NCBI GenBank assembly: GCA_038315875.1
Contig: JBBQAG010000001.1
Location: forward strand, 523-64,522
Reading direction: 5' to 3'
DNA from: Sphingomonadales bacterium
GTDB taxonomy: Bacteria; Pseudomonadota; Alphaproteobacteria; Sphingomonadales; Sphingomonadaceae
DNA length: 64,000 nt
The translations under genes and the position numbers were made by a program. Below, piece by piece: positions 1-10,667 of the stretch. Every line of letters begins with the position of its first letter. Positions within the stretch are counted from its first letter, which is position 1. The notes under the pieces are model-generated. The model saw nothing but the letters and a program-made list of their open reading frames with translations, was not told the origin of the DNA and searched no databases.

Positions 1-623
1 TTGAAGGGCCGCAAGGATTATACGCTGCCACCTGCAAAATGCCAAAGCCCATGGAGCTCGGCGATGGCTGGCGGATCGAGGAAGTCAGCTTCAAGCCCTG
101 GGGCGCTTGCCGCCACGCTCATCCCGCGATCGACGCGGCACTCGCGCTGCGCGCGCGCGGGACGCTCGAGCTACCCGTGACCGTCGCAACGTTCGCCGAT
201 GCCCTCGCCTTTTGCGACCGCCCCGATCCCAAGACGCCGCAAGAGGCGAAATTCTCGCTGCAACACGCCGTCGCGGTGGTGGTGGCACGTGGCGTGCCGA
301 CGCTTGCGGATTTCGAGCCCGACGCGATTGCGGCACTCGCTGGCGTGCGCGCCGGGGTGCGGGTGATCGAAGACCCGATGATCACCGCGCGCTACCCCGC
401 TCATTTCGGCGCGACCGTCAAGGCCGGGCGCGATCACGAGGCGCTGATCGACACGCTCGGCGATCCCGAACGGCCATTGTCGCGCGACGGGGTGATCGCC
501 AAGGCGCGCGCGCTGTTCGCCTGGGGCGGGCTCGATCCGGCGCTGTCCGAGCGCGCGGCGACGCTCGCACTAGACAGCAACGATGCCGAGGGCGTGGTTG
601 GCTGGCTCGAAGAAATCCTGTGA
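1..623 (+). CDS. MmgE/PrpD family protein, C-terminal part (5' end outside window)
   Basis: Frame is open from nt 3 (EGPQGLYAATCK...), upstream of the ORF-track start. Has MmgE/PrpD motifs EGPQGL, KPWGACRHAH, AKFSLQHAVA and GDPERPLS. Confidence 0.85.
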   Translation, partial: EGPQGLYAATCKMPKPMELGDGWRIEEVSFKPWGACRHAHPAIDAALALRARGTLELPVTVATFADALAFCDRPDPKTPQEAKFSLQHAVAVVVARGVPTLADFEPDAIAALAGVRAGVRVIEDPMITARYPAHFGATVKAGRDHEALIDTLGDPERPLSRDGVIAKARALFAWGGLDPALSERAATLALDSNDAEGVVGWLEEIL

Positions 624-1906
624 ACGCGACTGCCACCCTGCTCGAATTCGTGCGCGCCGAGCATCGGCTACCACAAAGCGTGCGTGTCGATGCCGAACGC
701 CTGCTCGCGGACACGCTCGGGGTTGGCGCAGCAGGCGCGACGGCGCCGGGGGCAGCCGGGGTGCTTGCAGCGGCACAAGGTTGGGGCAATGGCAGTGACG
801 CCCGGTTGATCGGATCACCGGAGCGCCTGCCCGCCCCCGGCGCCGCCTTCGTCAACGCGTTTCGCGTCCACTGCCTCGAATGGGATGCGGTGCATGAGCC
901 CGCGGTTGTCCACGCAATGTCAGTCGTCACGGCAGCCCTTGCCGCGAGTATCGACCGGATGGGCGGCTGCGACCCCGAAGACGCGCTGACCGCGCTGGCG
1001 GTCGGCGTCGATATCGCCTGCGGACTGGGCATTGCGGCCACGTCCCCGCTCACCTTCTTCCGTCCGGCGACCGCCGGGTGCATCGGCGCGGCAATGGCGG
1101 TTGCGCGGATCGAACGACTCGAGCGACCAGCGGATGCCCTTGGCCTCGCTTATTCCTTCTGCGCGGGCACGATGCAGGCGCATGTCGAGGGATCAATCGC
1201 GCTCCCGTTGCAGATCGCCAATGCGGCGCGTTCGGCGATCATGGCGGTCGATCTCGCCAAGGCGGGGCTTAGCGGCCCTTATGACTCGCTCGAAGGCGCC
1301 TTTGGGTATTTCGCCCTGTTCGATCGCGGCGACCTGACAGCCTATGTCGCGCAGATTGGCACGCTTTGGCGGATCAGTGAGATCAGCACCAAGCCCTATC
1401 CATCGGGCCGCGCAAGCCATGCCGCGCTTGGCGTGCTGGCCGACTGGGTGCTCGATCCGACCAAGGTCGACCGGATCGAGGTGATCGCGCCGCCGCTGAT
1501 CCAACGCCTCGTCGGGCGGACAATGCCGCGCAGCATGACCCCGGCCTATGCCAGGCTGTGCCTGCCGCTGCTCGCAGGGATGATGATCGTCGATCGGCGG
1601 ATCGACCCGCGCCGGTTCGTGCCTGCGACGTTTTTCGATCCGGAGATTGCCGATCTGGCGGGGCGCGTATTCGTGACGATCGATGGCAATCCCGATCCCA
1701 ACGCGCTGTCCCCGCAGCGAGTGCGTGCGACGATGAAGGATGGGCGGGTAATCGAACGGGTGGTGCCCGCCACGCTCGGCAGCCCGCAATCGCCGCTCTC
1801 TCCCGAGCAGACAGAGGCAAAGCGCGATCTGGCTCGCGCACTGGCGCCCGAAGCCGATCCGCGGCTGTTCGAATCTCCTCTTGCCTGGTTCACGGAGCCG
1901 CGATGA
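620..1906 (+). CDS. MmgE/PrpD family protein (second paralogue)
   Basis: GTG 620 overlaps the upstream TGA (GTGA). Motifs NAFRVHCLEWDAVH, LEGAFGYF, KPYPSGRASH, LGSPQSPLS. Confidence 0.85.
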   Translation: MNATATLLEFVRAEHRLPQSVRVDAERLLADTLGVGAAGATAPGAAGVLAAAQGWGNGSDARLIGSPERLPAPGAAFVNAFRVHCLEWDAVHEPAVVHAMSVVTAALAASIDRMGGCDPEDALTALAVGVDIACGLGIAATSPLTFFRPATAGCIGAAMAVARIERLERPADALGLAYSFCAGTMQAHVEGSIALPLQIANAARSAIMAVDLAKAGLSGPYDSLEGAFGYFALFDRGDLTAYVAQIGTLWRISEISTKPYPSGRASHAALGVLADWVLDPTKVDRIEVIAPPLIQRLVGRTMPRSMTPAYARLCLPLLAGMMIVDRRIDPRRFVPATFFDPEIADLAGRVFVTIDGNPDPNALSPQRVRATMKDGRVIERVVPATLGSPQSPLSPEQTEAKRDLARALAPEADPRLFESPLAWFTEPR

Positions 1907-3267
1907 CCTTCCCGACCTATTTCGAAGCCTTTGATGCAAAACAGATGCTCGCCGATTATCCCGTCGGCGATGCCTTTATCGCGCGCTATACAGCCATGAG
2001 CCGCGACGAATTGCGCGCCATCCAGGAAGTGCGCTTCGCCACACTGATGAAGCGCGGCTGGGAGATTCCCTTTTATCAACGGCTATGGGGCGAAAAGGGT
2101 ATCGAGCCGGGCGATATTCGCAGCCTCGACGATATCACCAAGCTGCCCGTTTACGACAAGACCGATCTGATGGCCTCAGTCGCGGCGCACCCGCCCTATG
2201 GCGATTTCGGGGGGCGCGGCGGCGATCCGGTGATCTTCCACACCACGAGCGGCACCACCGGGCGCCCGCAACCCCTGCTGTTTGGGCCAAAGGGGCGCGA
2301 GATCACCAACCTGCTCGTCGGCCGGATGTATCGCTGGCAGGGTCTGTCGCCCGAGGACGTCGTGCAGTCGGTCTATGGCCACGGCATGATCAATGGCGGG
2401 CATTACATCCGCGAGGCCGTGACCCACTTCACCAACTCGCTGTTCCTGTCGGCAGGCACGGGAATCGAGACGCGCAGCGCAGCGCAAGTATCGCTGATGG
2501 CCGATTTCAAAGTGACGGTGCTGGTCGGCTTCGTCGATTATATCCGCAAGCTGGCCGATGTCGCGCGCGAGGCGGGGATGATCGACCAGATCAAGATCCG
2601 GATGATCTGCGGCCATCTCGGCACCGAAGACCGCGCCGCGACCGAAGCGGCCTGGGGCGGCGCGAAAGCGTTCGATTGGTACGGCGTTGGCGATACCGGA
2701 TCGATTGCTGGCGAAGGGCCGGAACGCGACGGGCTTTATGTGTGGGAGGACGCGCAATTCCTCGAACTGCTCGATGTCGAGACCGGTGCGCCCGTCCCGC
2801 ACGGTGAAACCGGCGACATGGTCGTCACTTGCCTGTTCAAGGACGATATCGCGCCGTGCATCCGCTTCAACACGCATGACATCACGCATGAACTGAGCGG
2901 CACCAATGCGACGGGCATGGCGTTCAAGCGGATCGCCGGTTTCAAGGGCCGAAGCGACAATATGGTCAAGCTGCGCGGCATCAACGTCTTTCCCCACGCA
3001 ATCGGCGCGATCATCGAGAACCGTGCGGACTTGACCGGCGAATATGTCTGCCGGCTGGTGCGAGATCCAGTGACTCAGCGCGACGACATGCTGGTGATCC
3101 TCGAAAGCCGCGGCGGCAGCGACACAGCGGCTCTCGGCGCGCTGTTGCGGCAGGGGCTCGGCGTCGAGGTATCGATCGCGATTGAACCACCAGGGGGGAC
3201 CGCAGACCTCACCCAGATCGACAGCCGCCAAAAGCCGATCCGGCTGATCGACGAGCGCGGACTGTGA
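1903..3267 (+). CDS. Phenylacetate-CoA ligase (PaaK)-like adenylate-forming enzyme
   Basis: ATG 1903 overlaps the upstream stop (ATGA). P-loop TTSGTTGRP, WYGVGD, IRFNTHD, GRSDNMVKLRGINVFP. Confidence 0.85.
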   Translation: MTFPTYFEAFDAKQMLADYPVGDAFIARYTAMSRDELRAIQEVRFATLMKRGWEIPFYQRLWGEKGIEPGDIRSLDDITKLPVYDKTDLMASVAAHPPYGDFGGRGGDPVIFHTTSGTTGRPQPLLFGPKGREITNLLVGRMYRWQGLSPEDVVQSVYGHGMINGGHYIREAVTHFTNSLFLSAGTGIETRSAAQVSLMADFKVTVLVGFVDYIRKLADVAREAGMIDQIKIRMICGHLGTEDRAATEAAWGGAKAFDWYGVGDTGSIAGEGPERDGLYVWEDAQFLELLDVETGAPVPHGETGDMVVTCLFKDDIAPCIRFNTHDITHELSGTNATGMAFKRIAGFKGRSDNMVKLRGINVFPHAIGAIIENRADLTGEYVCRLVRDPVTQRDDMLVILESRGGSDTAALGALLRQGLGVEVSIAIEPPGGTADLTQIDSRQKPIRLIDERGL

Positions 3268-3274
3268 TCGCCGG

Positions 3275-4441
3275 ATGATCGATTGGACCGATCTTGAAGC
3301 GCGTAACGCCCCCCTCAACGCCTTTGTCGATTGTGATCGCGGCGCGACGGCTGGCGAAGGACCGCTGGCGGGTGTGACGATCGGCATCAAATCCAACATC
3401 GCCGTCAAAGGCCTGCCCTGGACCGCGGGCATGGGCACGCGGCGCAGCGTGATCGCCGAGCGCGATGCCGCCGTCGTGGCGCAATTGCGCGCGGCGGGCG
3501 CGATCATCCTCGGCACGCTCAACATGCACGAGGCAGCGCTCGGCGCGACGAACGACAACGCATTCTACGGCCGCACGCACAATCCGCACCGGCATGACTA
3601 CACGCCTGGTGGTTCCTCGGGCGGCAGCGGGGCTGCGGTGGCGGCAAGCTTGTGCGACGTAGCGCTGGGCACCGATACCCTTGGCTCGGTACGAATTCCG
3701 GCGGCCTATTGCGGCGTCTGGGGACTGAAGCCAACGCTCGGCGCGGTGAGCGACGACGGGCTGGTGCATCTGGGCACGGCCTATGACTGTATCGGCCCGC
3801 TCGCACGCGACCTCGACTTGCTGGCGCGGGCGTGGGCGGTGATGGCGCCGGGGCAATCGGAGACGCCGTTCGCCCGGCAATTGATGCTTCGGAATCTTGG
3901 CGACATCGTAATCGAATCAGCGGTCCGAAGGGGCTTTGAGCGGGTCATGGCCGCGATCGACTTGCCCAATGCCAGCTTCGCACTGCCCGATCCACTGCCT
4001 GCAATCCGCATGGCCGGCCTGATCGATTCGGTCCACGAACTGATCGGCGATCTCGGCGAGGCGCGGCATGGCGATGGCGTGTCCGACGAGCTGAAATTCG
4101 TGATGAGCGCGGTTGGCTCGCTCGCCCCGACGCCCGATGTGGTCACGCGCACACGCACCGCGCTGGTCGACGCGCTTGGCGATGACGGCGTGCTCGTGAT
4201 GCCGACCGCACCGCAAGCAGCCTTCGCGCACGGCCAGCGCGCGCCCGTTACTCAGGCCGATTTCACCGCGATTGCCAGCGTTGCAGGCCTGCCCGCGCTG
4301 TCGATTCCGGCGGGCTTCGACGGCAACCGGCTCCCTGTCGGCGCGCAAATCGTCGGCCCGGCGGGCAGCGAGACGCGACTCATCGCGCTCGCCCGCCAGA
4401 TCGAGGCCAACATCCAAGCCTACGCGCCACCCTCACGCTGA
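3275..4441 (+). CDS. Amidase signature family enzyme
   Basis: IGIKSN (Lys), GGSSGGS and GTDTLGSVRIPAAYCG give the Ser-cisSer-Lys triad motifs. Confidence 0.9.
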   Translation: MIDWTDLEARNAPLNAFVDCDRGATAGEGPLAGVTIGIKSNIAVKGLPWTAGMGTRRSVIAERDAAVVAQLRAAGAIILGTLNMHEAALGATNDNAFYGRTHNPHRHDYTPGGSSGGSGAAVAASLCDVALGTDTLGSVRIPAAYCGVWGLKPTLGAVSDDGLVHLGTAYDCIGPLARDLDLLARAWAVMAPGQSETPFARQLMLRNLGDIVIESAVRRGFERVMAAIDLPNASFALPDPLPAIRMAGLIDSVHELIGDLGEARHGDGVSDELKFVMSAVGSLAPTPDVVTRTRTALVDALGDDGVLVMPTAPQAAFAHGQRAPVTQADFTAIASVAGLPALSIPAGFDGNRLPVGAQIVGPAGSETRLIALARQIEANIQAYAPPSR

Positions 4442-4457
4442 CCCCAGGAGAAAACCA

Positions 4458-4766
4458 ATGCGCATCATTGTGTTGTTCAATCTGAAGCCCGACACTGCGG
4501 TCGCCGACTATGAAGCATGGGCGCGCGGCACCGATATCCCCGGCGTCCGTTCGCTCAAATCGGTCAGCGATTTCCAGATCTATCGCACCACCGGCCTGCT
4601 TGGCGGCGATACGCCTGCCCCCTATTCGCATGCCGAGATCATCGACGTGGCTGATATGGACCTGTTCTGGCAGGAGGTCGTCCAGCCGGGCCCGCAAAAG
4701 GTCGCGGGCGAATTCCGCGCATTCCTCGCAGGGGAACCCTTGTTCATCACCACCGAGGCGCTGTGA
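4458..4766 (+). CDS. HapK/RedY-like small protein (dimeric alpha+beta barrel type)
   Basis: SD AGGAG then ATG 4458; 102 aa MRIIVLFNLKP...YEAWARGTDIPGVRSL...EIIDV resembles REDY-like HapK proteins (from recall). Confidence 0.7.
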   Translation: MRIIVLFNLKPDTAVADYEAWARGTDIPGVRSLKSVSDFQIYRTTGLLGGDTPAPYSHAEIIDVADMDLFWQEVVQPGPQKVAGEFRAFLAGEPLFITTEAL

Positions 4767-5560
4767 TGCGCTTTGCCGGCAAGACGATCGTGGTGACTGG
4801 ATCGGGGCGCGAGAAGGGGCTCGGCCAAGCGATCCTGCAGCGCTTCGCCGATGAAGGCGCGAATTGCGTGGTGAGCGACCGCGAGATTGGCGATGAAGCA
4901 CAGGCCGTGGCAAAGGAGTTGAGCGACCGGGGCGCCGCCGTTGCAACGATCGCCTGCGATGTTTCCGCGGCCGCGCAGTGCCAGGCGCTGGTGAAGAGCG
5001 CGGTCGGAGCGTTTGGCGGCATCGATATCTTCGTCAACAATGCCGGCATCGGCTTCATGATGAAGCCGTTCCTGGACGTCGAACCAGCGGACTGGGACAA
5101 GGTGATCGCGGTCAATCTGTCGGGCGCCTTTTACTGCACACAGGCGGCCGCCAAGGCGATGATCGCCGGCGGCCGCGGCGGGCGGATCATCAATATCGCC
5201 AGCCAGGCCGCCAAGACGGGGTTCCCGCATCTGCCGGCCTATGTGAGCTCGAAGCACGGCATGATTGGCCTGACCCGCGCCTCGGCGGTCGAACTCGGCG
5301 CGCACGGCATCACCGTCAACGCGGTTTGCCCCAATCATGTCACGACTGGCCTCGGCGCTGAACAAAACGCCTATTTCTCCAAACTGCTCGGCTTTGACAG
5401 CATCGACGCCTATTTGAAAAACATGGCCGCCAAGAACCCGATGGGCCGCCCCGGCCTCGCCAGTGACACCGCCGCCGCCTGCGCCTGGCTCGCCAGCGAA
5501 GATGCCGTTTACGTGACCGGCGAGGCAATCAATGTGAGCGGCGGCGAGGAAATGCATTAG
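4766..5560 (+). CDS. Classical short-chain dehydrogenase/reductase (SDR)
   Basis: TGSGREKGLG, NNAG, NIAS, YVSSK (YxxxK), VNAVCPNHV. Confidence 0.92.
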   Translation: MRFAGKTIVVTGSGREKGLGQAILQRFADEGANCVVSDREIGDEAQAVAKELSDRGAAVATIACDVSAAAQCQALVKSAVGAFGGIDIFVNNAGIGFMMKPFLDVEPADWDKVIAVNLSGAFYCTQAAAKAMIAGGRGGRIINIASQAAKTGFPHLPAYVSSKHGMIGLTRASAVELGAHGITVNAVCPNHVTTGLGAEQNAYFSKLLGFDSIDAYLKNMAAKNPMGRPGLASDTAAACAWLASEDAVYVTGEAINVSGGEEMH

Positions 5561-5585
5561 CCAATGTTTGACCACGCCAAACCAC

Positions 5586-5668
5586 CCGTCGCCCCGGGCT
5601 TGACCCGGGGTCCCGCTTCTGCCGCGACCGAGGATGAGCGGGACCCCGGGTCAAGCCCGGGGTGACGG
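5586..5668. repeat. REP-like inverted repeat: 32-bp arms, 19-nt loop
   Basis: 5586-5617 CCGTCGCCCCGGGCTTGACCCGGGGTCCCGCT is the reverse complement of 5637-5668 except for one G.T wobble. Each arm contains CCCCGGG-N5-CCCGGGG. Confidence 0.9.
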
Positions 5669-5749
5669 TAAGGTAGGTGGGTTTGACCGCCAGCAGCGAT
5701 GGGTCTCCCTCTCCCCTGCGAGTAGGGACAAGGGAAAAGGAACGATGGG

Positions 5750-6616
5750 GTGAAGGAAGAACGCATCGACTGGCCGAACGGCGCGAAGATCGCGCTGAGC
5801 ATCGTCGTCAACGTCGAGGAAGGCAGCGAGATGAGCGTCGCGCGCGGCGACCGCGGGATGGAGCCCGTCGACGAGCTCGGCATCCATATCAAATCGCCGA
5901 TCCGCAACTACGGCAATGAGAGCAACTATCTTTACGGCATCAAGGCAGGCGCGCCGCGGATCGTGAAGCTGTTGCGCGCCTACGATATCAACGCGAGCTG
6001 GACGGTTGCCGCGCTCAGCCTCGAAAACCACCCCGAGATCGCTGCCGCGATCCGCGATCTGGGGCACGAACCCGTCAGCCATGGCTATCGCTGGGTGCAT
6101 CAATTCAAGATGGACGAAGCCGCCGAGCGTGATTTCATCGCCAAGGCCGTCAGCTCGATCGAGGCAAGCACCGGCACCCGCCCCCATGGCTGGCTCAGTC
6201 GCTATTTCCATACGGAGAATACCCGCCGACTGCTGATCGAGGCGGGCTTCGCCTATCATATGGACGATTATTCGGGCGACGTGCCCTATTGGGACCGCAC
6301 CACCGTGCCCGGCAAGCCGATCGCCATCGTGCCCTACCAGCTCGACGATAACGACATGAAGATGTGGACCGACCCCGCCTATACGCCTGCCGCCTGGTTC
6401 GATTATGCGCGGCGCTGCTTCGATCAGCTGTACCGCGAGGGCGCCGAGGGCAACCCGAAGATGATGTCGCTTGGGCTCCATCTCCGCATCATTGGCCGGC
6501 CGGGGCGCATCTGGGCGTTCGAGGAGTTCTTGAAACACGTCCGCGCGCACGATGGCGTGTGGGTCGCCACACGACACGAAATCGCGCAGCATCTGGCGAC
6601 GGTGGAGCCAGCGTGA
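5750..6616 (+). CDS. Polysaccharide deacetylase (NodB/CE4) family, PuuE/allantoinase-like
   Basis: WPNGAKIALSIVVNVEEG, HEPVSHGYRW, YHMDDY, MMSLGLHLRIIGRPGR, VWVATRHEIA. Confidence 0.85.
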   Translation: MKEERIDWPNGAKIALSIVVNVEEGSEMSVARGDRGMEPVDELGIHIKSPIRNYGNESNYLYGIKAGAPRIVKLLRAYDINASWTVAALSLENHPEIAAAIRDLGHEPVSHGYRWVHQFKMDEAAERDFIAKAVSSIEASTGTRPHGWLSRYFHTENTRRLLIEAGFAYHMDDYSGDVPYWDRTTVPGKPIAIVPYQLDDNDMKMWTDPAYTPAAWFDYARRCFDQLYREGAEGNPKMMSLGLHLRIIGRPGRIWAFEEFLKHVRAHDGVWVATRHEIAQHLATVEPA

Positions 6617-7365
6617 CGCTGCGCCTCGAAACCGACGGCGCCATCGCGCATCTGATCATCGATCGCGCGGCCAAGCGCAACGCGATCACCCAGGCGATGT
6701 GGGAGCAATTCCCCAGCCTGATCGCCGCCGCCATGGCCGATGAAGCGGTGCGCGTCCTGATCCTGCGTGCCGCCGGGCCGGGCGCCTTCTCGGCGGGTGC
6801 CGATATCGCCGAATTCAGCGTCGGCGCCCGCGACCCTGCGTGGCGCGCGGCCAACCAAGCCGCACTCGCAGGCGCCCAGATCGCGCTGACACGCGCGCCA
6901 AAGCCCGTCATCGCCCTTATCGAGGGCGATTGCATAGGTGGTGGCTGCGGCCTGGCGCTCGCCTGCGACCTGCGCGTCGCCACCGCCAACGCCCGCTTCG
7001 GCATTACGCCCGGCAAGCTGGGCCTCGTCTATTCGCTCCACGATACCAAGCTGCTCGTTGATGCCGTTGGCCCGTCCCAGGCCAAGCGGATTCTGTTCAC
7101 CGCTGCCCTGATCGATTCGGTCGAAGCACAGCGTATCGGCCTGGTCGATCTGCTGGATGAAGACCCGATCGCGCTCGCCGAAACGATCGCTGCCAATTCG
7201 CCGCACACCGCGCGGCAAGCCAAGGCGATGGTGCGACGTATCCTGGACGGCCAGGCGCATGACGATGCCGAGACCAACGCGCTGTTCGCCGAGGCATTCA
7301 CGCTGCCCGATTTCGAGGAAGGCGTTGGCGCCTTCCTCGCCAAGCGAAAGCCGGTGTTCAAATGA
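6613..7365 (+). CDS. Enoyl-CoA hydratase/isomerase (crotonase) family
   Basis: GTG 6613 overlaps the upstream stop. FSAGADIAEF, KPVIALIEGDCIGGG, ACDLRVA, EGVGAFLAKRKPVF. Confidence 0.9.
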   Translation: MTLRLETDGAIAHLIIDRAAKRNAITQAMWEQFPSLIAAAMADEAVRVLILRAAGPGAFSAGADIAEFSVGARDPAWRAANQAALAGAQIALTRAPKPVIALIEGDCIGGGCGLALACDLRVATANARFGITPGKLGLVYSLHDTKLLVDAVGPSQAKRILFTAALIDSVEAQRIGLVDLLDEDPIALAETIAANSPHTARQAKAMVRRILDGQAHDDAETNALFAEAFTLPDFEEGVGAFLAKRKPVFK

Positions 7366-8270
7366 GCGACTTTGTCACCCATGGGCGGATCATCGGCGGA
7401 TTGGCGACGGTGCCCGATCTTGAGGCGAGCCTCGCCGATTACCGCGATCGATTGGGGTTGAAGGTGATCGAGCACGGCCCCCTGCCCGACGATCTTGCTG
7501 CGAGCTGGGGGTGTCCCGCCAATGCCGGCGCGCGCTTTGCCAGACTCGCCCCGATCAGCGGCGCGCCGTGCAGCATGCGGCTGGTCGAACAGCCACTCGA
7601 TCGCGATTTCGTGCCCACGCGGAGCTATGGCTGGGCGGCGTTCGAGATCACCGTGCAGGATGTATTCGGCTGGCCCGAAAAGCTTGACGGCAGCGGCTTC
7701 GACATCGTTGGCCCGCCGAAGGAAATTCCCGGCCTTCCCTATTTCGTCGCGATGCAGATGCTCGGACGCGGGCGCGAGATGATCTATCTGAACGAGGTCC
7801 GCGAAAATACGCCAACCTCCGATCTGCCCCCTGCGGCATCACCCGTCGATCATCTGTTCATCGTCATCCTCGCGAGCCCGGACCGCGCGGCGACGATGGC
7901 CTGGTATCACGACACGCTGGGGCTGGAGGAAGGCGGTAGCTACACAATCCCCTATTCGATGATCAACAAGGCGTTTGGCTTGCCCGACGGCCACCTGACC
8001 TCGCTGAGCATGGCGCAGAAAGGGCGGATGCCGATCGTCGAGATCGACGATTATCCGGACGTGGCAACCCCGCGCAGGCGGTCAGCCGGCTTGCTACCCC
8101 CGGGCAATGCGCTGGTGACGCTGGCGGTCGACACGCTCGATCTGCCTGGGCTCGATTTCATCACCCCGCCGGCGCTGCGCGACGGTCCCTTCTATGCGTT
8201 GCGCCGCGCCGCGACGGTGATCGGCCCGGCTGGCGAGTTACTGGAACTGGTGGAGATTGATCACCAGTAG
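7362..8270 (+). CDS. VOC/glyoxalase family protein (multi-module)
   Basis: Repeated VOC modules: VPDLEASLADYRDRLGL, SPDRAATMAWYHDTLGL, IGPAGELLELVE. Start overlaps the upstream stop (ATGA). Confidence 0.75.
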   Translation: MSDFVTHGRIIGGLATVPDLEASLADYRDRLGLKVIEHGPLPDDLAASWGCPANAGARFARLAPISGAPCSMRLVEQPLDRDFVPTRSYGWAAFEITVQDVFGWPEKLDGSGFDIVGPPKEIPGLPYFVAMQMLGRGREMIYLNEVRENTPTSDLPPAASPVDHLFIVILASPDRAATMAWYHDTLGLEEGGSYTIPYSMINKAFGLPDGHLTSLSMAQKGRMPIVEIDDYPDVATPRRRSAGLLPPGNALVTLAVDTLDLPGLDFITPPALRDGPFYALRRAATVIGPAGELLELVEIDHQ

Positions 8271-8331
8271 CGACCGACTGACCGATCCCGTGACGAGGCC
8301 ATTTTCATCACCATTGCGAGCGCAGCGAAGT

Positions 8332-9045
8332 TCATCGGTCGCGAGGCGCCTGGTCCTTCAGTCGTGCCGCCGCTGCCATGGTTCGCGCATCGCGATCCGG
8401 CGAAAGCGCTGCTACCCGTTTGCGATAAAGTGCCACCGCATCGGCCCCCGCGCGTTCGGGTGAGCCACTATCGAAGGGCGGCGCGGGATCATATTCGAGG
8501 CTTAGTTGCACCATCCGGGCATGCGCCTCACCCCGGATTCGCGCGGTCAGCGCCAGTGCGAAATCGATGCCCGCCGTCACGCCGCCGCCCGTTACGCGAT
8601 TGCGATCGAAGACGTAGCGCGCTTGCTCGGGGATTGCGCCGAATGCAGCCAGATGCTCATGCTGCGCCCAGTGGCAGGTCGCACGATATCCCGTCAGCAA
8701 TCCGGCGGCGGCGAGCAGGATCGATCCAGTGCACACACTCGTTACCCACTCGGCGCCGGCAGCGGTCTTGCGCAACCATGCCAGCGTCGCATCGTCCTCC
8801 ATTGCCGCTGTCACGCCAAATCCGCCCGGCACGCACAGGATATCGGGCTGGGCGGCGGTGGCGAAGCTCGCGGTAGGATGAAGCGGGAAGCCGGCATCGG
8901 TCGGCACGGGACCCATCGTCTTGGCGACAAGATCGATCGTCATATTGCCGAGCCGCGACAGCACCTGTGCAGGACCGGTGAGATCGAGCTGGGTAACATC
9001 GGGAAACAGCAGAAACGCAACGCGGATCGGACTCAGTTCGGGCAT
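8332..9045 (-). CDS. DJ-1/PfpI family protein, isonitrile hydratase (InhA)-like
   Basis: FLLFPDVTQLDLTGP (Asp21), VPGG, SVCTG (Cys105), ATCHW, GGGVTAGIDFAL, VQLSLEYDPAPPFDSGSP. The 84-residue Asp-Cys spacing equals InhA Asp17/Cys101. SD GGAGG at 9055-9051. Confidence 0.88.
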   Translation of the reverse strand: MPELSPIRVAFLLFPDVTQLDLTGPAQVLSRLGNMTIDLVAKTMGPVPTDAGFPLHPTASFATAAQPDILCVPGGFGVTAAMEDDATLAWLRKTAAGAEWVTSVCTGSILLAAAGLLTGYRATCHWAQHEHLAAFGAIPEQARYVFDRNRVTGGGVTAGIDFALALTARIRGEAHARMVQLSLEYDPAPPFDSGSPERAGADAVALYRKRVAALSPDRDARTMAAAARLKDQAPRDR

Positions 9046-9069
9046 ATCGACCTCCAGCTATTCGAGGGA

Positions 9070-9139
9070 TGCCCAGGCGATGCGGCTGCAAACCCCGCGC
9101 TCCCCGGTGGTGCTCCACCCGATCGCCAGTTACGCGGTT
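9070..9139 (-). ncRNA. ZMP/ZTP (pfl motif) riboswitch aptamer
   Basis: Minus strand reads AACCGCGUAACUGGCGAUCGGGUGGAGCACCACCGGGGAGCGCGG-GGUUUGCA-GCCGCAUCGCCUGGGCA. P1 CCGCGU/GCGCGG, ACUGGCGA, P2 GGUGG/CCACC, GGGGAGC, P3 GCC/GGC, pseudoknot GGCG/CGCC. Ends 25 nt before the start codon. Confidence 0.9.
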
Positions 9140-9281
9140 ATGCCAATAGGTATCGCTGATTGGGGTCGTTTTCCAGCGTAAAGTCGGGCTGTCGTCCGGT
9201 CCCTTGATGGCACGGCAACACGAAACGTCTGCGTAACGGCTGCGTGCTTTTCAGATTCTTGCCATTATCATCCGCTAGGCC

Positions 9282-10667
9282 ATGCGCCCACTTCCTCAAT
9301 TCGCTGCCGGTTGCGCGATCATGCTTTCCGGATGTGCGCCTGTGCCCCGCATTGCCGTGCCACTAGCGGTGTTGTCGGTTGATTGGAGCCGCGATCCACA
9401 TGATCAAGGCGAGCTGACCAACCGGTCGCTTGCCGACATGCTGGGGTCGTCCGCGCTCGCCGCGCTGATCGATCGGGCGATGATCGCCAGTCCCCCGCTG
9501 ATCGCCGCCCGTGCACGGGTCGATCAGGCGGTGTCGCAGGTGCGTGTCGCGCGGTCGACAGGTCTGCCGCTGGTGTCGGCATCGGCGGGCGGCAGTGCTG
9601 CACGCGTTGGCGGGCGCAGTCCGTTCGATTTCACCAGCAGCTTTGCCGCCCTCGATGCGAGTATTTCGATCGACATTTCGGGCGGCATCCGCGCCGGACG
9701 TCGCGCCGCACGTGATCGCGTGAGTGCTGCCGATCTCGATGCGCAGGCGCTCGCGCTGGAAATCGGCGTGACGATTGCCCGGGTTTATGTCGATCGCGCG
9801 GCATTTCAGGCCAGGCTGAGGCTGATCGATCGCCAGATTGCCGCGACGACCCAGCTCCAGCACCGCATCGAGGCACGGCAGCGTGGCCACGCGCCGACGC
9901 CGATCGCGATCGGACTGCAATTGATCCGAGTCCAGAATCTGATCGCCGAGCGCAGCCGCCTCGATCAGGCGCTCGATCAGACCCGCACCGCGCTGGCCCT
10001 GCTGCTGGGTGAAGAGGCGCCGCGCTTTCGCGCAGTGCCAGCCGATCTTAACGCCTTCGATTACCGGACGACGACGGTACCAAGCCCCTCGCAGTTGCTG
10101 ATCGAGCGTGCCGATATCGCTGCTGCCGAACGTCGTATCGCTGCCGCTGGGGGGGACGTGGCACAAGCGCGCGCGGCCTTTCTGCCCCGGCTGGACCTGT
10201 CGATCAGCCGATCGGCAGAGAATTTCCTGACAGCAGGGCCATTTGCCGGGATGAGCATTGGCGGCGCCTTGCTCGCCCCGATCTTTGGCCGTGGCAGACT
10301 GCGCGGCAATCTCGAATTTGCCACCGCAGGACAGCGCGAGGCGGTCGCCAACTATCGAACGGTGCTGCTATCGGCCTTTTCCGATACCGAAAATGCGCTG
10401 TCGGCAGTTCGTCACGCCCGAGAGCGCGCCGCACTTCTCGCCGATATCGAACAGCGGGCGCTGACGACGGCGTCGCTGGCGGAGCGTCGTTATTTGACCA
10501 GCGGGGGTGATTTCTGGGCGGTAATCAATGTCCAAGACCTGTCGATCGCGGCGCAGGACGCCCGGCTCGTCAGCCTTCAGGAACAGCTCGAAGCGAGCAT
10601 CTCTCTCTACCGAGCGACACGGCGATCAGCGACGGCACCACGATTAGACGATAACCCGACAGACTGA
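9282..10667 (+). CDS. Outer-membrane factor (NodT/OprM/TolC family) lipoprotein
   Basis: Lipobox LSGC; two OEP-like repeats; signature PSQLLIERADIAAAERRIAAA...ARAAFLPRLDL. Confidence 0.85.
   Translation: MRPLPQFAAGCAIMLSGCAPVPRIAVPLAVLSVDWSRDPHDQGELTNRSLADMLGSSALAALIDRAMIASPPLIAARARVDQAVSQVRVARSTGLPLVSASAGGSAARVGGRSPFDFTSSFAALDASISIDISGGIRAGRRAARDRVSAADLDAQALALEIGVTIARVYVDRAAFQARLRLIDRQIAATTQLQHRIEARQRGHAPTPIAIGLQLIRVQNLIAERSRLDQALDQTRTALALLLGEEAPRFRAVPADLNAFDYRTTTVPSPSQLLIERADIAAAERRIAAAGGDVAQARAAFLPRLDLSISRSAENFLTAGPFAGMSIGGALLAPIFGRGRLRGNLEFATAGQREAVANYRTVLLSAFSDTENALSAVRHARERAALLADIEQRALTTASLAERRYLTSGGDFWAVINVQDLSIAAQDARLVSLQEQLEASISLYRATRRSATAPRLDDNPTD

Follow-up and report, generated by a model that had tools for sequence, protein, structure and literature searches.

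A predicted ZMP/ZTP riboswitch recurrently paired with an isocyanide hydratase-family DJ-1/PfpI gene in Sphingomonadaceae

The window analysed here, a stretch of 64,000 nt from the genome of a member of the Sphingomonadaceae (contig JBBQAG010000001.1), carries on its minus strand an open reading frame of 237 amino acids (9045-8332) whose product matches the Pfam family DJ-1_PfpI (PF01965) at 94.5 bits. In a phmmer search of the PDB, its best solved relative is the isocyanide hydratase (ICH) of Pseudomonas fluorescens (3NON, E 2.6e-67, over residues 7-229 of the 237), and identity with the characterised enzyme is about 50%. The gene is monocistronic, because the downstream neighbour, encoding a VOC/glyoxalase-fold protein (7362-8270, plus strand), is convergent and the upstream neighbour, encoding a NodT-type outer-membrane channel (9282-10667), is divergent. 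The features of the gene and its leader are as follows.

9147..9175, minus strand: candidate promoter TGGAAA-N17-TACCTA, a weak inference from the sequence and from comparison with relatives
9064..9143, minus strand: ZMP/ZTP riboswitch aptamer (pfl motif), Rfam RF01750, 52.3 bits
9095..9137, minus strand: P1 helix enclosing the 5' sub-domain, CCGCGU 9137-9132 with GCGCGG 9100-9095 (Rfam alignment)
9124-9130, minus strand: conserved J1/2 box ACUGGCG (sequence)
9076..9127, minus strand: pseudoknot, GGCG 9127-9124 with CGCC 9079-9076, read from the sequence
9106..9119, minus strand: P2 hairpin, GGUGG 9119-9115 with CCACC 9110-9106 (Rfam alignment)
9071..9086, minus strand: P3, a short helix, GCC 9086-9084 with GGC 9073-9071, the outer pairs mismatched (Rfam alignment)
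9071-9079, minus strand: conserved 3' box CGCCUGGGC (sequence), containing the CGCC side of the pseudoknot
9039..9075, minus strand: predicted OFF-state sequestor hairpin, UGGGCAU 9075-9069 with AUGCCCG 9045-9039 and CCUC 9067-9064 with GAGG 9054-9051 (minimum free energy folds)
9051..9055, minus strand: Shine-Dalgarno sequence GGAGG, 5 nt 5' of the ATG (sequence)
8332..9045, minus strand: isocyanide hydratase-family DJ-1/PfpI gene, 237 aa, monocistronic (Pfam PF01965, PDB 3NON)

The initial annotation had placed the protein with InhA-type DJ-1 enzymes on the strength of Asp21 and Cys105, and the alignment upholds that placement. Homology with P. fluorescens ICH and P. putida InhA (3NON, 6NI4 and other structures) is full-length and takes in the C-terminal extension, where the ICH-type segment QLxLEYxPxPPF is conserved, and Asp21, Cys105, Thr106 and Gly154 of the query align with Asp17, Cys101, Thr102 and Gly150 of ICH. 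Both the catalytic Cys/Asp/Thr set and the loop of Gly150 and residue 152 can thus be recognised by alignment, and isonitrile hydration itself is a predicted activity. In ICH, the Cys101 thiolate attacks the isocyanide carbon to give a thioimidate that is hydrolysed to an N-formamide, with Asp17 as the acid/base, and residue 152 acts via its backbone (PMC10462001). Position 152 is Val in place of Ile in the query, and Ile152Val is one of nine positions, each at least 90% conserved in the alphaproteobacterial clade, that differ from the P. fluorescens enzyme, others being residues 45-46 (TD for AS). By analogy with ICH, the most likely activity of the enzyme would be a thioimidate-type hydration or hydrolysis of a C-N compound with a carbon at the formyl oxidation level.

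A conserved co-transcribed partner of the ICH-like genes was not found in relatives: the same-strand ORFs that follow are for the most part shadow ORFs of high-GC sequence, the only real genes are lineage-specific (an MFS transporter at loci L102 and L112, an aldo-keto reductase at L014), and no formamide deformylase adjoins the ICH-like genes. As a separate observation, a long same-strand run of enzyme genes on the plus strand of the window (1-8270) converges on the ICH-like gene; those checked encode an SDR (4763-5560), a PuuE-like polysaccharide deacetylase (5750-6616), a crotonase (6364-7365) and the VOC protein (7362-8270), and the run is not conserved beside ICH in relatives.

A cmscan search of the whole window gave a single Rfam match that passed its gathering cut-off, on the minus strand at 9143-9064: RF01750 (ZMP-ZTP), with 52.3 bits where 39 are required. 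The match spans the full model (positions 1-86), and its E value is 1.2e-5 for the window and 1.2e-7 for the host genome (2.63 Mb in 166 contigs, 93% complete), which has no other ZTP switch. The covariance model therefore agrees with the riboswitch call previously made from the letters of the sequence, and each pfl-motif element named in that call (P1, the GGUGG/CCACC hairpin P2, GGGGAGC, P3 and the GGCG/CGCC pseudoknot) is present, with the core of the aptamer ending at C9071, 25 nt 5' of the ATG (9045-9043), as had been described. P3 of the window aptamer is weak, with only three Watson-Crick pairs, all of them G-C, and the invariant nucleotides of the ligand pocket and pseudoknot are all intact.

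Comparison of 57 aligned ICH-linked aptamers points to continuing selection on this fold. Compensatory changes occur at 12 base pairs. Doubly changed cells number 133, where shuffled alignments give 60.5 +/- 6 and 0 of 500 reach the observed count; 87.4% of cells are paired, as compared with 37-46% when the partners are slid. Seven pairs of P1 show compensatory changes and three of the five pairs of P2 covary (one, for instance, has G-C in 33 sequences but A-U in 24); both helices are strong, and in P3 only the inner three pairs are conserved, at 98-100%. The GGCG/CGCC pseudoknot is invariant in 57 of 57 aptamers, 100% paired and without covariation, and the ACUGGCG and CGCCUGGGC boxes are likewise invariant across the set. 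The aptamer lies in the 5'-UTR, where it overlaps a predicted expression platform. The gene that follows is ICH-like and not one of the purine or one-carbon genes that are typical of the family without defining it. Judged from its sequence, the element at 9143-9064 is a genuine ZMP/ZTP riboswitch, an ordinary member of its class with an unusual target.

In the predicted OFF-state fold, the segment UGGGCAU, which includes the 3' strand of P3, pairs with AUGCCCG, which holds the start codon. The corresponding segment of each homologous leader was folded, and a predicted GGGC-GCCC sequestor, with at least three of the four GGGC bases paired, appears in 55 of 56 distinct sequences; the GCCC partner either overlaps the start codon (AUG-CCC) or is found 2-7 nt 5' of it, within about 11 nt overall. 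The Shine-Dalgarno sequence has at least three of four bases paired in the folds of 44 of 53 homologous leaders, and the anti-Shine-Dalgarno/Shine-Dalgarno pairs keep this design although their sequences differ (CCCUC, CCUUC, UUUCU and others). The minimum free energy of the whole leader is not lower than that of shuffled sequences (z = +1.16), a value expected of a bistable GC-rich leader. Scans for terminators and for strict sigma-70 promoters found nothing in window positions 8000-9500. The candidate promoter at 9175-9147 is a weak inference; transcripts from it would begin where the aptamer does, at its 5' edge. In the closest relative (L010) the equivalent positions read TGGAAT-N17-TACAGA, and TTG...CTA recurs at similar spacing in other leaders. 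Only DNA metagenome runs contain the locus, with no RNA-seq run among them.

This layout looks like a translational ON switch, as predicted from the folds. With ligand absent, the P3 3' strand UGGGCAU would pair with the start-codon segment AUGCCCG and CCUC with the GAGG of the Shine-Dalgarno sequence, and initiation would be blocked. When 10-formyl-THF is short, ZMP/ZTP would accumulate and, as the presumed ligand, lock P3 and the GGCG/CGCC pseudoknot, which would withdraw the GGGC from the sequestor and free the ribosome-binding site. We consider it likely that the element works as a ZMP/ZTP riboswitch, turning on translation of the monocistronic ICH-family gene when ligand is bound, and that this gene is a member of the folate/purine stress response.

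The census of downstream genes shows that the pairing extends well beyond this locus. Within the genus, a ZTP match is found in 8 of 25 genomes and lies directly before the orthologue of the ICH-like gene in all eight. Across the Sphingomonadaceae, 34 of 401 genomes have a ZTP match, always exactly one, and among 33 of these matches (the window's own left out) the commonest target is the ICH-like gene, with 19 instances in seven genera. The others are rpiB-glyA (5), folB (3), a small DSP/PTP-like phosphatase (3), a LysE exporter (1) and two sub-threshold matches, one folP-like and one before a beta-glucosidase fragment. Approached from the protein side, an aptamer precedes 32 of 47 sphingomonad ICH loci and none of the 20 non-sphingomonad ICH loci scanned (Reyranella, Pantoea, Myxococcales and Actinomycetota). 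Sixteen of 400 genomes from other Alphaproteobacteria have a ZTP switch, with glyA as the target in eight cases, LysE in three, purH in one, an unknown gene in one and an ICH-clade DJ-1 gene in three, these last in two other alphaproteobacterial families. In a wider sample of Pseudomonadota, ICH was the target at 0 of 20 loci, and glyA, purH, folD, LysE and phosphatase genes were seen. The pairing occurs in more than 60 alphaproteobacterial genomes in all.

On a tree of 106 ICH-like proteins, those linked to a ZTP aptamer are spread over at least three clades, one grouping with Pantoea proteins, and aptamer losses are scattered; the tree requires 9 changes, where shuffled labels would lead one to expect 35. 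Sister genomes place their single ZTP switch on rpiB-glyA or folB. The association of the riboswitch with the ICH-like gene is therefore no accident, being conserved and recurrent, and in the Sphingomonadaceae this gene has been recruited as the main, and usually the only, ZTP-controlled gene.

The census also brought up other ZTP-associated genes and matches. In three sphingomonad genomes (L093, L094, L107) and one from another alphaproteobacterial family (L142), the sole ZTP-controlled gene encodes a DSP/PTP-like phosphatase of 156-172 aa with an HCxxxxxR motif (Pfam PTP-NADK at 32 bits, and weakly BLH_phosphatase), its ORF starting 13-23 nt past the aptamer. From its sequence such a protein could be a ZMP or pterin-phosphate phosphatase, and we know of no report of it as a ZTP target. 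In five genomes (L120, L127, L134, L135, L156), of which four are alphaproteobacterial and the fifth belongs to another class of Pseudomonadota, the gene immediately after the ZTP aptamer encodes a LysE/RhtB-type exporter (roughly 200-220 aa; Pfam LysE, 103 bits). Such exporters are a recurrent target outside the canonical set and perhaps export AICA riboside or a related compound. With the target of the single switch varying by genus among ICH-like, rpiB-glyA, folB, phosphatase and LysE genes, the one ZTP sensor of the Sphingomonadaceae seems to have been re-wired repeatedly. A sub-threshold ZTP-like match of 37.8 bits (L121, genome G129) precedes a folP/sul-like dihydropteroate synthase gene, and a third match in genome G1127 (L160, 44.6 bits) has no evident ORF downstream. 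One of the eight ZTP-bearing genomes of the window's own genus has a second ZTP-like match (L009, G024:C43:5421-5501, 50.5 bits) with the variant boxes CCUGCGC and GUGCAGC, 70 nt before a gene for a ScpA-like segregation protein, and this may be a decaying or re-purposed copy.

Not every ICH locus retains the switch. Of the same-genus orthologues, 6 of 14 have no aptamer, as do about 15 sphingomonad ICH loci, and ZTP control is therefore dispensable. No relic aptamer was found before these ZTP-less orthologues at E <= 1, with the exception of L088, which is borderline at 39.0 bits. The ICH orthologue of Sphingomonas koreensis (L079) appears truncated, at 180 aa, and has a CGCCTGGGC box 36 nt upstream with no Rfam match even at E <= 1, so that it looks like a decaying riboswitch-gene unit. 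Loci L054-L078, from Reyranella and relatives, pair a ZTP-less ICH orthologue with a divergent GlxA/AraC-type regulator carrying its own DJ-1 domain, a putative protein-based alternative to the riboswitch. Conservation of Asp17, Cys101, Thr102 and Gly150 (ICH numbering) extends over 61 ZTP-linked proteins and 47 ZTP-less ones, and no residue was found that separates the two sets; the enzyme may therefore be a plain isocyanide hydratase without folate chemistry.

Kim, Nelson and Breaker (2015) is reportedly the primary paper on the ZTP riboswitch, and we know of no description of riboswitch control for an ICH. The window element has the same two-subdomain aptamer as known ZMP/ZTP riboswitches, with the same pseudoknot between ACUGGCG and CGCCUGGGC, and is predicted to follow the same ON logic: a platform helix would compete with the pseudoknot and the 3' side of P3. 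In contrast to the clostridial model ZTP switches, which are of the terminator type, the platform here is predicted to be translational, sequestering both the Shine-Dalgarno sequence and the AUG. The pfl motif (Rfam RF01750) goes back to Weinberg et al. 2010 (PMC2864571), and the targets listed for the class are purH, glyA, folD, fhs and pfl (PMC2864571, PMC7266159), whereas the target here is an ICH-family DJ-1 gene. As in the guanidine and fluoride riboswitch regulons (reviewed in PMC7266159), a known sensor upstream of a gene whose role is not understood offers a testable clue to function; the difference is that here the ligand is known and the enzyme chemistry is known in vitro, and the physiological substrate is the missing part. 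In full-text searches of the literature, no paper was found that links a ZTP riboswitch with DJ-1, PfpI, ThiJ, ICH or Sphingomonas, or that joins isonitrile hydratase with folate, although an earlier mention, for example in a supplementary list, is possible; the first 200 of the 438 files of the Weinberg 2010 supplement contain no ThiJ, PfpI or DJ-1. Papers that mention both isocyanide hydratase and a riboswitch deal mainly with structural methods, serial crystallography and enzyme dynamics. The ZTP-ICH pairing is a new, conserved and informative addition to the ZTP regulon.

Because the ZTP riboswitch can be trusted to report a shortage of 10-formyl-THF, every gene that it controls is a candidate in one-carbon or purine homeostasis. 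The initial annotation had proposed an unrecognised role in one-carbon or folate stress, such as making or releasing formyl units. Membership in this stress response is strengthened by the conservation of the pairing, seen in all eight switch-bearing genomes of the genus, in 19 of 33 family matches, at 32 of 47 loci and in two more families, whereas release of the formyl unit as free formate is disfavoured. Metabolic co-occurrence was examined in 25 same-genus genomes, to which the counts for 5-formyl-THF cycloligase (5-FCL) and FolD add 16 genomes of the same order. Of the eight genomes with a ZTP-linked ICH gene, three have Fhs (five lack it) and none has PurT; among the other 17, Fhs occurs in five and PurT in three. 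A supply of free formate for Fhs or PurT, with no co-occurrence to suggest it, is disfavoured because most of the ZTP-ICH genomes of the genus could not use formate. Replacement of 5-FCL (PF01812) or of the FolD cyclohydrolase (PF02882) is without support, each domain being present in 41 of 41 genomes. All four of these tests (Fhs, PurT, 5-FCL, FolD) were negative or uninformative.

The chemistry of the ICH family, which handles C-N groups at the formyl oxidation level, would fit a folate-stress regulon, and our best guess, though a somewhat doubtful one, is that the enzyme conserves or repairs N-formyl purine or folate intermediates and does not produce free formate. An endogenous task in the formyl economy, with Cys-thioimidate chemistry acting on a purine or folate intermediate under 10-formyl-THF shortage, is distinctly improbable in that specific form. 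Such a task may consist of re-hydrating isonitrile-type dehydration products of FGAR, FGAM or FAICAR, of opening 5,10-methenyl-THF to 10-formyl-THF, or of passing a formimidoyl or formyl unit to AICAR without folate; these specific activities are speculation.

The same genomic data can be read in other ways. That the protein is an ordinary isocyanide hydratase detoxifying isonitrile natural products from the environment is suggested by its identity with the characterised enzyme and the retention of all catalytic residues, by the ZTP-less orthologues nested among the ZTP-linked ones without distinguishing residues, and by the GlxA/AraC-type regulator beside the Reyranella orthologue, as expected of a substrate-induced detoxification gene. 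ZTP control would then reflect isonitriles, or the conditions in which they occur, depressing one-carbon metabolism, or N-formamides feeding salvage; however, we know of no link between isonitriles and ZMP accumulation, no formamide deformylase adjoins the gene, and formate from deformylation would be unusable with PurT absent from eight and Fhs from five of the eight same-genus ZTP-ICH genomes, and we regard this account as unlikely. Rather unlikely, too, is that the enzyme relieves an overflow of the ligand by acting on ZMP or its derivatives (AICAR, AICA riboside, the AICA carboxamide) and so lowers a toxic pool alongside the ZTP-linked phosphatases and LysE exporters. The occurrence of those two kinds of target is the pattern expected if the ligand is dephosphorylated and exported, and the DJ-1/PfpI enzymes have Cys amidases and class I amidotransferases among their relatives, but the protein has the ICH residue set and not a Cys-His-Glu amidase triad, and hydrolysis of the AICAR carboxamide would achieve nothing beyond a futile cycle.

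The weakness of P3, a score at the low end of the set, the loss of the aptamer in several lineages and the borderline match at L088 might also suggest that the aptamer is no more than a remnant or has come to bind another ligand, and that the gene lies outside ZMP/ZTP control. This we hold to be very improbable, as all invariant nucleotides of the ligand pocket and pseudoknot are intact, covariation indicates continuing selection on the helices, and the predicted expression platform has evolved in step with the start region.

Isocyanide hydratase has been much studied as a model enzyme, and its natural substrate and role have, to our knowledge, not been established. The conserved, lineage-wide pairing of its gene with a ZTP riboswitch points to antifolate or ZMP stress as a definite setting in which the natural substrate could be sought, and, together with the phosphatase and LysE targets, the ICH-like gene widens the known ZTP regulon. 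If the enzyme does no more than detoxify isonitriles, the finding would still be an unexpected regulatory link worth explaining. If it does act in the formyl economy, the pairing would establish a new arm of the ZTP regulon and answer the long-standing question of what isocyanide hydratases do in nature.
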